Assembly: GCA_041662745.1 (NCBI GenBank) | Contig: JBAZRV010000001.1 | Coordinates: forward strand, 69,837-133,836 | Source of the DNA: Patescibacteria group bacterium | Lineage (GTDB): Bacteria > Patescibacteriota > Patescibacteriia > 2-01-FULL-39-33 | Direction of reading: 5' to 3' | DNA length: 64,000 nucleotides | In this document: in pieces, positions 29,136-33,987 of the stretch | How the letters are laid out: every line of letters starts with the position of its first letter | How positions within the stretch are numbered: position 1 is the first letter of the stretch | Program-made: the position numbers and the translations under genes | The notes under the pieces: model-generated | Databases searched by the model: none | Seen by the model: the letters and a program-made list of their open reading frames with translations, nothing else | Told to the model about the DNA's origin: nothing

Positions 29136-29530
29136 ATTCTATAGCTAAATCAGTAAAGAAATGTTATGAGCCGCGGCAATCAAGCCGCAAAACTCATGGG
29201 TGTGACAGCGAATTACATATCCCGACAAGCCGGCGAACCGGCAGCGGGGTGTTATCCATTCTTGCGATTAAACTAAACCATTAGTATCGCTCGGCTGAAC
29301 GCATTACTGCGCTTACACCTGCGACCTATCAACCTCCTCGTCTCGAAGGGGTTTAATGAAATCTAATCTTGAAGACAGCTTCACGCTTAGATGCTTTCAG
29401 CGTTTATCTTAACCGAACGTAGCTACCCAGCGATGCCCTTGGCAGAACAGCTGGTACACTAGAGGTTCGTCACTTCCGGTCCTCTCGTACTAGGAAGTGG
29501 CCTTCTCAAATTTCTGCGCCCATGGTAGAT

Positions 29531-30284
29531 AGGAGACCGACAAATATGTTACTCTTTCGAAATCATTATCGAAAGGCTCCAAATATTTCTATTGGAGTCT
29601 GCATATCGCTATGCAGTTCGGACTATATCTTATCGCTTACGGCGATTCTGACGTATAGTCTCTGAGGATTTCAAATAATCTAATAATTTATCCTGGCTTA
29701 CCTTGCGGTAAGCGCCTTGCTTATTCATAGAATAAGCCAGTTTAATAATATATTGCGCACCAGTTTTGGTGCTATGCTTTCCAGTGCTTAACATTTTAAC
29801 TACCTTCTTAAAGGTTAAAAATGTTTTTTGCTTATTAGAGAGCAAGGGATACTGATCAAAAAAAGGAATAATCTTGTTTTCCAAATCAAGCCTGTTTCTA
29901 ACGACAAATACCTGAGTATCATCTTTGGTATTTTGGCGATGGTTACATTTGATATAACCGCAACCGAAATACTTTTGGATTTCTTCTAGGGTTTCGTGTC
30001 TTAAAAAGCTTTGATTAATGTGGAATTCAGGAATGAATTTCAAATTGCATTTCATTTTATCATCACGATAAATGGCAATATGGAATGTCCCCTCTCCTTC
30101 AGTAAACCCGGTAATATACCACGGACTTAGATGACTTGATCTTTCCTGCTGATTGTCTGCACTCAACACATTTTTACTCATAATACATTAATTATATCAC
30201 GAGTAGTGTGAGATACCCAAGTCCCCCTATAGGGACTTTTCCAGAGTTTCCAGCATTTAGTCAGATTTATAGACAGCAAAGTCT
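29531..30284 (-). mobile_element. group I intron in 23S at the I-CreI/I-CeuI-type site (E. coli position about 2593), encoding a LAGLIDADG endonuclease
   Basis: Exon ...AGAUAGGAGACCGA ends at 29530 and ACUGUCUCACGACGUUC resumes at 30285. This is the conserved ...GUGAGACAGU|UCGGUC junction. The intervening 754 bp have no rRNA similarity. Confidence 0.75.
29630..30181 (-). CDS. LAGLIDADG homing endonuclease (single-motif type, 183 aa), intron-encoded
   Basis: LAGLIDADG-like motif WYITGFTEGEGTFHIAI near the N-terminus. The size is typical of I-CreI-like homodimeric enzymes. Confidence 0.8.
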   Translation of the reverse strand: MSKNVLSADNQQERSSHLSPWYITGFTEGEGTFHIAIYRDDKMKCNLKFIPEFHINQSFLRHETLEEIQKYFGCGYIKCNHRQNTKDDTQVFVVRNRLDLENKIIPFFDQYPLLSNKQKTFLTFKKVVKMLSTGKHSTKTGAQYIIKLAYSMNKQGAYRKVSQDKLLDYLKSSETIRQNRRKR

Positions 30285-30934
30285 ACTGTCTCACGACGTT
30301 CTGAACCCAGCTCGCGTGCCGCTTTAATTGGCGAACAGCCAAACCCTTGGGAGCTTCTCCACCCCCAGGATGCGACGAGCCGACATCGAGGTGCCGAACC
30401 TGGTCGTCGATATGGACTCTTGGACCAGACTAGCCTGTTATCCCCGGAGTAGCTTTTATCCGATGAGCTTCCACCATCCTACATTGAATGGTCGGATCAC
30501 TAAATTCTACTTTCGTAACTGCTCGACTTGCAGGTCTCGCAGTAAAGCTGGCTTGTGCTTTTGCGCTATCACTCCGATTTCCATCCGGAGCTAGCCAACC
30601 TTTGTAAACGCCTCCGTTACATTTTGGGAGGCAACCGCCCCAGTTAAACTACCCACCATACACTGTCCCTCTCCCGGATTACGGGAGGAAGTTAGAATTA
30701 TAATATAACAAGGGTGGTATTTCACTGGCGCCCGAAGGCTCCCACCTATTCTAAACATATTAGATCACAATTCAGTGCAAAGTTGTAGTAAAGCTTCACG
30801 GGGTCTTTTCGTCTAACCACGGGTAGGAGGCATCTTCACCTCCCTTGCAATTTCGCTGAGTACTTCGCTGAGACAGTTGTCAAGTCGTTATGCCATTCGT
30901 GCGGGACGGAACTTACCCGTCAAGGAATTTCGCT

Positions 30935-31625
30935 TCAAGTTTCCTTTCTTGGGACTCTATCTTCATCCCGATGGGATGCTTAGCGTTTGGTCTCTGAGGA
31001 TTCTAAAAATCGAGCTGGTAATCGACGGTTCATTTGTTCAATGATCCCGGCGATTTGTATTTTTCCCTTCTCCTTAAGATGTTTTCCTTGCTTTATCAAC
31101 TTTATTATCTTGATAAATTTTTTGAAATCATCCGCCTTGGCTGTTTGCAGCCGGCGAGCAGAGAAAAATGGGATTATGACTTCGGATAAATCACTGATTG
31201 ATCTTACGCAATACCGATAAAGATTCTCTTGATGGTTATCTTTACGGCGGTTGATATAAATCTTGCCGCAGCGAAAAAATTTTTGTATTTTTTCTAGTGC
31301 TTTAAGACTTTTTTCTCCCTGCGTAATCACAAATTCAGGAAAAATCTGCCAGCCTGATTTGGTAGTGTGATTTTTGATGATACTGACTGAAAAACAGCCC
31401 TCACCATCAGTAAATCCGACTATCCAATGCTCGAATTTCAGCCTTTCCTGCTGATTGATCGACATAAATTAAGTTATTTTCTATGGTATAATTTTACCAT
31501 AGTTTTGTCGATTTTCCCAGCATATGGCTAAGTATTTTGGACCATTCTTATATTGCTATAAGAAGAGGCAGCGTTAATAGATAACGGTCCCAGTCCTTTT
31601 GCATCCGAATTATTTCCGATGCAAA
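30935..31625 (-). mobile_element. group I intron in 23S at E. coli position about 1917 (domain IV, helix 69 region), encoding a LAGLIDADG endonuclease
   Basis: Exon ...CAAGGAAUUUCGCU ends at 30934 and (A)CCUUAGGACCGUUAUAG resumes at about 31626. This matches the conserved GGUCCUAAGGUAG|CGAAAUUCC junction. Confidence 0.7.
30980..31465 (-). CDS. LAGLIDADG homing endonuclease (single-motif type, 161 aa), intron-encoded
   Basis: Motif HWIVGFTDGEGCFSVSI. Paralogous to the 29630..30181 protein. Confidence 0.8.
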   Translation of the reverse strand: MSINQQERLKFEHWIVGFTDGEGCFSVSIIKNHTTKSGWQIFPEFVITQGEKSLKALEKIQKFFRCGKIYINRRKDNHQENLYRYCVRSISDLSEVIIPFFSARRLQTAKADDFKKFIKIIKLIKQGKHLKEKGKIQIAGIIEQMNRRLPARFLESSETKR

Positions 31626-33987
31626 ACCTTAGGACCGTTATAGTTACGGCCGGCGTTCATCTGCGCTTCGATTCAAAGCTGCCCCGGTAAACCGGTTGAC
31701 CTCTCCTCTTAACGTTCAGACACTGGCCAGGCATCAGCCCCTATACATCAGCTTGCGCTTTAGCAGGGACCTAAGTTTTTGGTAAACAGTCGCTTGACAT
31801 CTTTAGCTGCGCCCCAAATAAATTTGGGGAGGCCTTATCCCTAAGTTACGGCCGATTTTTTGCCGAGTTCCTTAGCGAAGTTTCTCTCATACACCTGAGG
31901 CTACTCGCCTCATCCACCTGTGTCGGTTTAAGTACGGTTGCCTTGATCTTAACCCTAGAAGTTTTTCATGGCACTCGGTTTAATATAATTGAGTCCGCCT
32001 TGCGGCTTCCTCTGCTGCCGTATTCGTTGCTTAATGACCGGCGGATTTGCCTGCCGATCACAACTACTAACGTCATCGTCATAGCCATAGGACGATATAT
32101 CTCCCCTGATGCGTCACTCCTTCGGAAAATCAAGCCAGCGCAGGAATATTAACCTGCTCATCCATCGGCTACGCCTTTCGGCCTCGTCTTAGGACCGGCT
32201 AACCCTGGGTCGATTCTCGTTGCCCAGGAAACCTCGGATTTACGGTGTCTAGAATTTTCATCTAGATTCTTGCTACTTATGCCAACATTCTTACTTCCTA
32301 GCAGTCCACCGCGCCTCACAGCTACGGCTTCGTTCCGCTAAGAACACTCCTCTACCACTCTATATAAATATAGAATTCGCAATTTCGGTACTATGTTTAG
32401 CCCCGATACATTTTCGGCGCAAGAAAACTTGACCAGTGAGCTATTACGCTATCTTTAAAGGATGGCTGCTTCTAAGCCAACCTCCTGGTTGTCGCGGTCT
32501 TGATACCACCTTTTACACTTAACATAGATTTAGGGACCTTAATTGGCGATCTGGGCTGTTTCCCTTTTGACTGATGGACCTTAGCGCCCATAGTCTGACT
32601 TCCGAAATAAAGATTACCGGTATTCGGAGTTTGATTGAAGACAGTAACCTTGCGGACCTGTCCTCATTCAGTGCTCTACCCCCGGGTCTATTTTCGAAGC
32701 TAGCCCTGAAGCTATTTCGAGGAGAACCAGCTATCACGAAGTTCGATTGGAATTTCTCCGCTATCCACAGCTCATCCCCAAGTGTTGTACAGCTTGTGGG
32801 TTCGGGCCTTCCCAGACTGTTACATCTGGTTCACCCTGGCCATGGATAGATCACCTCGTTTCGGGTCTTATCCGCGCTACAATTGTTCGGACTATTAATC
32901 CTCGCTTTCACTGTGCCTTCTCCCCGAAGGGATTAAGCAAGCAACGCAGAATAAACTCGTTGGCTCATTCTTCAATAGGAACGCCGTCATCCAGAATTCG
33001 TATTGCTACGACCTTGGACTCCGACTCGTTTGTAAGCAAATGGTTTCAGATACTATTTCATCGCCCTAACCGGGCTGCTTTTCACCTTTCCCTCACGGTA
33101 CTTGTTCGCTATCGATCATCAAAAGTATTTAGCCTTGCCATATAGTCATGGCGGATTCCTACAAGATTTCACGAGTCCTGTAGTACTTTAGATTATAACG
33201 ACGGAAGTACGATTCTTTTCGCGTACGGGGCTTTCACCCGCTCTGGCCGGCTGTTCCAAAACCGTTCCGCTAAAAATTTTATTCCGCTCGGATACAAGTG
33301 CAATCCGCTGGTTATAATCATCACCCCAAAGCAGCAACGGGCACTCCTTTATGCCGACGCTACGCTTTCCCCTTGCGGGAAAAGTTTCACACCGGCAACA
33401 CTGCTAAGGTTTAGGCTGCTCCGCTTTCGCTCGCCACTACTCGCGGAATGCAATCCATAGATCCGTGTCCTGCTTACGCAGAAAACGGAACTAAGGATTC
33501 AATTTTTTCTTTTCCTCCAGCTACTGAGATGTTTCACTTCGCTGGGTTTGCGTTTGTAACCTATGAATTCAGTTACAAATGACGCGGGTTTGCCGCGCCG
33601 GGTTTCCCCATTCGGATATCTCCGGATCAAAGGTTGCTTGCCACCTCCCCGAAGCTTTTCGCAGGCTGCTACGTCCTTCATCGCCTTTTGATGTCTAGGC
33701 ATCCACCATTCGCCCTTAATGTTTAATCGCAAGAATCTGGATAACTTATAAAAAAGAAAATTGCCTTATTCTGTCATTCCCGAAAATTTGCAGTGAGTTT
33801 TCGACTAATGTCGAAACGAACCAAAATTTATCGGGAATCCAGCATTAAGAATTTCCTCTTGTAAGAGTTTTTCCTTATTCTGTATTTTATTACTAAAATA
33901 CTAAAAGTATGTACTCATTAATAATTGCAATTCGCTGCCACGCCCATAAATTTGGCGCGGCATTAAATTACCCATTTCTTTACTATG

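Follow-up and report, generated by a model that had tools for sequence, protein, structure and literature searches.

Two group I introns, each with a gene for a single-domain LAGLIDADG endonuclease, at positions 1931 and 2604 of a patescibacterial 23S ribosomal RNA gene

What interrupts the 23S ribosomal RNA (rRNA) gene of a Patescibacteria group bacterium, and at which positions, is the question raised by a stretch of 64,000 nucleotides from contig JBAZRV010000001.1 (NCBI GenBank assembly GCA_041662745.1, positions 69,837 to 133,836; the whole stretch is referred to below as the window). An initial annotation of this DNA had described a 23S gene split by two group I introns, each encoding a single-motif LAGLIDADG homing endonuclease, at the canonical sites 1917 and 2593. 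We found two inserts of this kind at other sites: intron A, 691 nt long, after Escherichia coli position 1931, and intron B, 744 nt long, after position 2604. With a confidence of roughly 85%, we read both as mobile group I introns whose ribozymes are of one related lineage, each carrying the gene for a single-domain LAGLIDADG homing endonuclease (HE-A and HE-B, respectively); their splicing, endonuclease activity and dimerisation are what we infer from sequence comparison and from known enzymes.

Coordinates are given as window positions, and E. coli numbering is that of the MG1655 rrlB gene in a BLAST alignment, verified at landmarks U1915, U1917, U1939, A2058, A2451, G2505, U2585, A2602, C2611 and A2660. 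A 23S copy from E. coli strain BA22372 was rejected as the numbering reference and replaced by rrlB, since it is 5 nt short (2899 nt) and shifts positions by 2–4. The bacterial large subunit (LSU) rRNA was detected on the minus strand with 2130 bits (Rfam LSU_rRNA_bacteria), model position 1 falling at 33729, and a 5S gene was placed downstream of the 23S gene at 29135..29028 by the same Rfam scan. Alignment with rrlB resolved the 23S gene into three collinear exon blocks (window 31793–31626, 30934–30285 and 29540–29279, equivalent to E. coli 1770–1931, 1932–2604 and 2605–2885), from which the following layout was derived:

31626..33729, minus strand: 23S exon 1 (E. coli 1–1931), delimited by Rfam LSU position 1 at 33729 and by the end of the BLAST block at 31626, which is E. 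coli U1931
30935..31625, minus strand: intron A (L1931), a group I intron of 691 nt at U1931|A1932 that ends in A (rrlB alignment, RF00028, core map and pair counts in 53 homologues)
30285..30934, minus strand: 23S exon 2 (E. coli 1932–2604), from the BLAST comparison with rrlB
29541..30284, minus strand: intron B (L2604), a 744-nt group I intron at U2604|U2605, without P2, with an extended P5, an open reading frame (ORF) in the P6 loop (L6) and a terminal G (rrlB alignment, RF00028, structure map and covariation in 51 homologues)
29258..29540, minus strand: 23S exon 3 (E. coli 2605 to the 3' end, the latter approximate), from the BLAST block 29540–29279

The exon junction at intron B reads GAGACAGU|UCGGUC, as originally described, while the one at intron A reads CCUAAGGU|...|AGCGAAAUUCC and lacks the GGUAG that had been written on its 5' side. 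Because the flanking letters differ from the ends of the inserts, none of these boundaries can slide. The interval proposed for intron A (30935–31625, 691 nt) was exact; in that proposed for intron B (29531–30284) the upper end was right, and the lower end lay ten bases too far, the correct position being 29541. The comparison with E. coli 23S, suggested at the outset as a check of the insertion coordinates, thus returned 1931 and 2604.

Could the introns nevertheless be the ones first proposed, at the 1917 site and the I-CreI site 2593, with enzymes of the I-CreI family? The 2604 junction does fall inside what we take to be the 22-bp I-CreI recognition sequence, and the L2593 site, presumably AACGU|CGUGAG as in the I-CreI literature, would lie 11 nt upstream of that junction. 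Inserts encoding LAGLIDADG proteins also exist at 1917 and 2593 in the Candidate Phyla Radiation (CPR; Tsurumaki et al. 2024, PMC11270868). Against this version, the landmark-checked alignment places the insertions at U1931|A1932 and U2604|U2605. Positions 1917–1931 form uninterrupted exon sequence (UAACGGUCCUAAGGU) with no insertion after U1917, and the 1931 site lies 3' of helix 69, outside the loop of the helix to which it had been assigned. I-CreI, moreover, is a remote relative of HE-B (25% identity, 32 bits). We therefore regard the 1917/2593 version as refuted for all practical purposes.

To define what kind of RNA the inserts represent, we mapped their structures manually and counted base pairs in Python on MAFFT alignments of homologues. 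For L2604, the HE-B family alignment was scanned against one genome per GTDB species, which yielded 80 loci, nearly all with an insert exactly at 2604|2605, and 52 introns were extracted from them. By eye, the conserved P, Q, R and S elements were recognised in the correct order in both introns of the window (P, AUGCUGG(G/A)AA; Q, AAUCAGCAGG; R, UCAGAGAC(U/C)A; S, AAGAUA(U/G)AGUCC). The parts of intron B that carry its recognition of the exon and its 3' core are:

30271..30277, minus strand: internal guide GCUGUCU, pairing with the 5' exon AGACAGU as P1, with U.G at the splice site (covariation in 51 homologues)
29599..29668, minus strand: 3' core comprising P6', J6/7, P7, P3', P8, J8/7, P7' and P9 with its GNRA loop (RF00028 match and covariation)

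In intron numbering, P1 joins exon AGACAGU to nt 8–14 (GCUGUCU), P3 joins nt 20–25 to 633–638 and P4 joins nt 31–35 to 133–137. P5 (40–43 with 126–129) is extended by P5a and P5b, the AUG lying within P5b, and P6 (138–141 with 617–620) holds the body of the ORF in its loop. These are followed by P7 (623–629 with 660–665), P8 (639–653) and P9 (669–686, with a GNRA loop), next to which come P9.1, P9.2 and the sequence UAACAUAUUUG, ending in the terminal G at 29541; P10 pairs GACU (nt 2–5) with GGUC of the 3' exon. P2 and P7.1/P7.2 were absent from intron B in the manual structure map. The HE-B ORF (nt 104–655) overlaps P5b', P5', P4', P6, P6', P7, P3' and P8, and the N-terminal SADNQQER and C-terminal SSETIR of the HE-B family are near-invariant because the Q and R elements code for them. 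Overlap of this kind between ORF and core was noted for cyanobacterial 23S introns (PMC1995217).

This structure is upheld throughout the family. All 52 L2604 introns follow a 5' exon ending in ...GAGACAGU and themselves end in ...UAACAnnnnnG, so that the terminal G is present in 52/52. Across the 51 sequences used for pair counts, the splice-site U.G is universal, the five P1 pairs that follow it do not vary, and the outermost P1 pair forms in 44/51. All six P3 pairs form in every sequence, five of them alternating between G-C, A-U, C-G and U-A, while pairing in P5, P5b, P6, P7 and P9 is kept through double changes. The guanosine-binding pair in P7 (G625-C664, beside a bulged A) is G-C in 51/51. 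Judged from its sequence and those of its relatives, intron B is a canonical group I intron in every feature tested.

A different origin would make the inserts ordinary intervening sequences, or else expansion segments, with chance ORFs and removal by RNase III without any ribozyme; it has to be weighed at this point. Intervening sequences are common in bacterial 23S genes, with short ones found in CPR (PMC11270868), and the group I model RF00028, also suggested at the outset as a check, matched both inserts below its gathering threshold of 50 bits (31.8 bits for intron B, at 29599–29821; 23.2 bits for intron A, at 30933–31199). The low scores arise because the ORFs sit in the P6 loop and overlap the core, and the model cannot bridge an ORF of ~480 nt. 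The Rfam alignment of the 5' halves, which puts P1–P6 of both introns within the ORFs, was for its part rejected and replaced by the covariation-backed manual map. Both inserts possess the full set of group I core elements (P, Q, R and S; P3–P9) with strong covariation, the splice-site U.G and terminal G are invariant in the L2604 family, and neither insert has the long terminal stem joining its ends that an RNase III substrate needs. We consider removal as an intervening sequence very improbable; exon blocks, core elements and covariation together bear out the original proposal of a 23S gene split by two group I introns.

Intron A was examined in the same way. Scanning metagenomes with the HE-A family alignment added 80 loci to the first set, and the two sets combined provided 54 L1931 introns and 15 empty sites reading GGUAGCG; the HE-A relatives with an extractable junction (about 45) were all located at 1931. 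Its main elements are:

31582..31592, minus strand: exon-binding segment UGGGACCGUUA, complementary to exon positions 1917–1927, the 3' strand of helix 69 (11/11 positions pair in the window)
31566..31573, minus strand: internal guide CGCU|GCCU, forming P10 with AGCG of the 3' exon and P1 with AGGU of the 5' exon, G.U at U1931 (read from the sequence; homologous to the GCUGCCUUAG guide of other L1931 introns)
30936..31000, minus strand: 3' core comprising P6', J6/7, P7 with a G-C guanosine-binding pair, P3', P8, J8/7, P7' and a short P9 (RF00028 match, mapping and pair counts)

The P3 pairs form in 51–53 of 53 L1931 sequences, with alternation between GC, AU, CG and UA; P6 and P7 are paired, and the guanosine-binding pair of intron A, likewise next to a bulged A, is G634-C673. 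This core is clearly homologous to that of intron B, indicating one ribozyme lineage occupying different sites.

In the way they address the exon, L1931 introns fall into two classes. In class 1, the guide GCUGCCUUAG comes after a short L1 and pairs with exon CUAAGGU; to this class belong all four non-CPR L1931 examples of the genome scan, with a contiguous guide GCCUUAG and a terminal G. Class 2, which includes intron A, begins with a 5' hairpin (nt 1–28) and continues with AGGACU, the 11-nt UGGGACCGUUA, a spacer, the shortened guide CGCU|GCCU, a GNRA hairpin, GGUCC and P3. Among 17 class-2 introns, the 11-nt segment shows compensatory changes at exon positions 1920 (C-G/U-A), 1921 (G-C/C-G), 1922 (G-C/A-U) and 1924 (C-G/U-A); since it follows the variants of the host exon, the pairing between exon and intron is real. 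P1 of intron A has only 4 bp (AGGU/GCCU, with U1931.G), and we suggest that it forms an H-type pseudoknot with the adjacent 11-nt helix, a topology that would extend exon recognition.

As the guide pairs AGGU and AGCG side by side, in the normal register of P1 and P10, the ligation junction is 1931|1932. Other assignments were tried and rejected. A 5' splice site after U1926, where GGGACCGUUA pairs with exon UAACGGUCCU and the helix ends in U.G, gives a product that loses 4 conserved nucleotides, and U1926 pairs with A instead of G in 4/17 relatives. If the intron ended at G30936 or G30933, the universally conserved GGUAGCGAAA would gain or lose nucleotides, and relatives have no G at these offsets. 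Taking the 5' hairpin as P1 leaves no exon pairing beyond U1931.

What do the two ORFs encode? Their genes are placed as follows:

30980..31465, minus strand (intron A nt 161–646): gene for HE-A, a 161-aa single-domain LAGLIDADG endonuclease (ORF, Pfam, PDB and Foldseek matches)
29630..30181, minus strand (intron B nt 104–655): gene for HE-B, a 183-aa single-domain LAGLIDADG endonuclease (ORF, Pfam, PDB and Foldseek matches)

The HE-A gene starts adjoining the 3' strand of P5, has its body in L6 and places its stop codon in the 3' strand of P3. Each protein matches PF00961 (LAGLIDADG_1) far above the cut-off of 23.1 bits (87.8 bits for HE-A and 83.2 for HE-B; E-values of 2.8e-23 and 1e-24 for the two endonucleases) over one stretch covering profile positions 1–102. 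The predicted single-motif ORF per insert was confirmed in this way, and the predicted sizes and N-terminal motif were likewise found in place: 183 aa with YITGFTEGEGTF (30181..29630; motif ITGFTEGEG) for HE-B and 161 aa with WIVGFTDGEGCF (31465..30980; motif IVGFTDGEG) for HE-A. The two endonucleases are related but divergent, as had been proposed, with 37% identity.

Among solved structures, the single-domain I-TnaI (5gkk) was matched by both proteins (E 1.1e-27 for HE-A, 1.5e-22 for HE-B), as were I-Vdi141I and halves of the monomeric I-OnuI-family enzymes (83–131 bits). The AlphaFold model of HE-B (predicted local distance difference test score, pLDDT, 85.6) contains the complete alpha-beta-beta-alpha-beta-beta-alpha core (helix, H, and strand, E, elements H20–29, E31–39, E47–57, H59–72, E76–79, E90–94 and H97–110), whereas that of HE-A is weaker (pLDDT 73.7): it too has the strand-helix core of the fold, but its N-terminal motif helix is of low confidence and not resolved. 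In Foldseek searches, I-TnaI was the best match of the HE-B model (template modelling, TM, scores 0.72/0.89; I-Vdi141I, 0.74/0.84) and also of the HE-A model, with 38% identity over aligned residues. I-CeuI was not among the 60 best PDB matches of HE-A. With an I-CreI query sequence confirmed against PDB 1n3e, HE-B showed the 25% identity and 32 bits quoted above. Of the solved structures, that of I-TnaI is nearest; I-CreI is no more than a remote relative, and the assignment of these enzymes to the I-CreI family does not hold in the narrow sense.

Residues E30, Q57 and K117 of HE-B are invariant among 37 family sequences and align with the catalytic D20, Q47 and K98 of I-CreI. A 31-member alignment of the HE-A family showed invariant G17, D20, G21, E22, G23, Q49 and K110, of which E22, Q49 and K110 may, by analogy only, be counterparts of active-site residues. 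Given the intact domains, the structure matches and the invariant catalytic residues, both endonuclease genes look functional.

The distribution of the inserts bears on whether they are mobile. A chance origin is excluded, as the same inserts were met again, at those two positions, in dozens of independent contigs and empty sites are found in related rRNA genes (15 at 1931 and 5 at 2604). Each endonuclease family is tied to one site, HE-B to 2604 and HE-A to 1931. The closest relatives are found in Patescibacteria/CPR, with Candidatus Buchananbacteria as the best match. In the closest relative of the window's 23S gene (L003, Candidatus Buchananbacteria, CAISTG010000005.1), exon identity is 92–94% and HE-B identity 83%. 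This relative has the L2604 intron as well, and in place of the L1931 intron, which it lacks, it has a ~750-nt insert near 1951/52. This difference in intron content points to rapid intron turnover between close relatives. The 2604 target, GAGACAGU|UCGGUCUC, contains a 5+5 inverted repeat centred on the insertion point, and the symmetry of the targets fits, if weakly, a homodimeric enzyme.

The L2604 family is not confined to CPR. Its CPR hosts are Buchananbacteria, Magasanikbacteria, Kerfeldbacteria, Uhrbacteria, Berkelbacteria and others, and outside CPR it occurs in two chromosome-level Gammaproteobacteria MAGs, OZ245000.1 (Rariloculaceae) and OZ244979.1, as well as in Thiomargarita nelsonii, Omnitrophota, Planctomycetia, Armatimonadetes, Dadabacteria and Thermoleophilia. 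Loci outside CPR with both the L2604 intron and the endonuclease at the identical position include L043, L061, L068, L060, L056 and L078, among others. The introns had been put forward as a hallmark of CPR rRNA genes that supports the taxonomic placement. The closest relatives do lie in Patescibacteria/CPR, but since the introns are not exclusive to this group, the support they lend to the placement is weak.

Taken together, our preferred reading is as follows. Each intron would be transcribed within the pre-rRNA and fold into a P1–P10 ribozyme that lacks P2, has an extended P5 and holds its ORF in the P6 loop. Guanosine-initiated self-splicing would then remove the intron and restore the conserved GGU-AGCG and ACAGU-UCGG, the ligated L1931 junction reading GGU-AGCGAAAUU. 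I-TnaI, I-CreI and I-ShaI, the last a CPR enzyme, suggest by analogy that each endonuclease acts as a homodimer, cutting the allele without the intron at its pseudo-palindromic insertion site and thereby driving intron homing.

Several observations weigh against this reading. Both introns score below the RF00028 gathering threshold (31.8 and 23.2 versus 50 bits), although ORF insertion and overlap explain this, and half-site symmetry is modest, with 6/11 at 2604 (top 4% of gene positions) and 5/11 at 1931. The others concern intron A, which ends in an A (30935) and is without the terminal G that normally docks for exon ligation, and which has a C.A mismatch in P7. Because intron A departs from the usual pattern in its terminal A, its 4-bp P1 and the 11-bp exon-intron helix beside P1, the reading is least secure for its second splicing step.

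One way to account for these departures is that splicing of intron A is impaired or absent while intron B behaves normally: exon ligation would fail or be very slow, and the insert would be retained in the 23S rRNA or removed by host RNases, leaving a fragmented molecule. The terminal A, the short P1 and the C.A mismatch are in keeping with such a defect, as are the A or U ends of 17/54 L1931 introns. From the titles of cited work, a Simkania L1931 intron is reportedly unspliced and a Coxiella 23S intron is said to lack the canonical terminal G; the latter, however, reportedly still self-splices. In the non-G class, core, P10 guide and exon-binding helix are conserved with compensatory changes, which would be unexpected for a decaying ribozyme, and the ORF of intron A is intact. 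CPR rRNA inserts have, furthermore, been reported absent from transcripts (PMC11270868). We consider impaired splicing of intron A unlikely and retain the reading of two splicing introns.

Of the 54 L1931 introns, 37 end in G, 10 in A and 7 in U, compared with a terminal G in 52/52 of the L2604 family. In all seven U-ending introns, which derive from metagenomes (L072, L085, L086, L087, L089, L090 and L094), the P7 G-C pair homologous to Tetrahymena G264-C311 is replaced by A-U (CAGAAACC...GAGUUC, versus CAGAGACC...GAGUCC in the others), and a terminal U occurs in 0/45 L1931 introns with the G-C pair. Six of the seven are distinct, with 55–72% mutual identity and four helix-69 variants in their hosts. 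The clade combining A-U and terminal U may reflect one ancestral event, and, as these introns begin with U, their boundary could slide by one, in which case the last nucleotide is A in 4/6. Michel et al. in 1989 and Been and Perrotta in 1991 reportedly found that A-U at this pair re-specifies the nucleoside site to 2-aminopurine or adenosine.

It is conceivable, though doubtful, that intron A, together with roughly one in three of its relatives, can finish splicing although no terminal guanosine is present, a split guide (the 4-bp P1 and the adjacent 11-bp helix, in a pseudoknot) holding the 5' exon. The terminal U and A-U pair of the sister clade could then mean a re-specified nucleoside pocket, with a U.A-U triple in place of G.G-C. 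The terminal A of intron A, which goes with a G-C pair, has its precedents in the Coxiella and Simkania introns mentioned above. Both the non-G ends of L1931 introns and the way in which, within one clade, they are coupled to the guanosine-binding pair are relevant to a basic rule of catalysis by group I introns.

Outside the introns, the Rfam LSU match stops at 30252, where the model end is forced, and misses exon 3. A standard scan therefore truncates the 23S gene at intron B and loses the 283-nt exon 3, and annotation pipelines need intron-aware models for such 23S genes. Domain I of the 23S gene contains extra segments relative to the Rfam bacterial model, of ~50 nt (about 33454–33503) and ~62 nt (33339–33400) together with smaller ones; they contain no ORF and may be expansion segments or short intervening sequences. 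An uninterrupted 16S gene (1475 nt, 54885–56359) lies on the same strand as the 23S–5S pair (29258–33729) but ~21 kb away from it, which makes this an unlinked rRNA operon. Downstream of the 16S gene, between tRNA-Ile(GAU) and tRNA-Pro, a tRNA gene on the minus strand (53867–54180) is split by a 242-nt group I intron without an ORF, for which RF00028 scored 86.4 bits (54178–53916, Rfam). By eye, its 5' exon ends in ...GAAGACU at 54149, the intron-terminal G is at 53907 and the 3' exon starts with GAAAAUCUUU; the anticodon is GAA (Phe), and ARAGORN made no call for the gene.

How the two introns relate to known systems can be stated for each site. In CPR 23S genes, LAGLIDADG_1-encoding inserts are known at 1917, 1931, 1952, 2593, 2604 and 2657, their proteins being almost always single-domain (PMC11270868), and rRNA group I introns have been reported from 15 bacterial phyla (PMC13011429). 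Both insertion sites of the window were accordingly already catalogued for CPR in 2024, as 23IS13 (2604) and 23IS7 (1931), and the window adds one more 23S gene of a known kind. Introns B and A share with these classes the host group, the positions, single-domain LAGLIDADG_1 proteins of ~160–180 aa and group-I-like flanks that are detected only at relaxed Rfam thresholds (PMC11270868). That study gave neither splice junctions nor ribozyme structures for 23IS13 and 23IS7, and described group I introns at 23IS13 as unreported in other bacteria, whereas we find the same family at 2604 in non-CPR genomes.

Intron A is close to the bacterial L1931 introns described in 2007, which measure 654–700 nt, encode endonucleases of 143–167 aa and have ORFs running into the core (PMC1995217). 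It has the same U1931|A1932 site, a similar size (691 nt and 161 aa), no P2, a complex P5 and an ORF that likewise enters the core. I-TnaI, the best structural match of HE-A, is itself the enzyme of the Thermotoga L1931 intron. In contrast to the introns described in 2007, intron A belongs to a subclass with an extra 5' hairpin, the 11-nt exon-pairing segment, a 4-bp P1, a short P9 and a terminal A. I-ShaI of Candidatus Shapirobacteria, the only biochemically tested CPR homing endonuclease, cleaves its insertion site and dimerises; it resembles HE-A as a single-domain LAGLIDADG_1 protein from a 691-nt 23S insert of class 23IS7, and is reportedly 42% identical to I-CeuI, the enzyme of site 1923 (PMC11270868). 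As I-CeuI lies outside the 60 best PDB matches of HE-A, this reported identity sets I-ShaI apart, and HE-A probably belongs to a different lineage.

For intron B and HE-B, the comparison is with I-CreI and the Cr.LSU intron (L2593), a homodimeric single-motif LAGLIDADG enzyme and, as here, a domain V group I intron. I-CreI differs from HE-B in sequence (25% identity) and in its site, presumably 11 nt upstream. L2593 introns have a short P5 and a P7.1/P7.2 extension (PMC1995217); in intron B, P5 is long and the extension is missing. Little here is new beyond intron A's exon-binding helix and its end in a nucleotide other than G, while the comparative sets provide covariation-backed structures for the L2604 and L1931 intron families.

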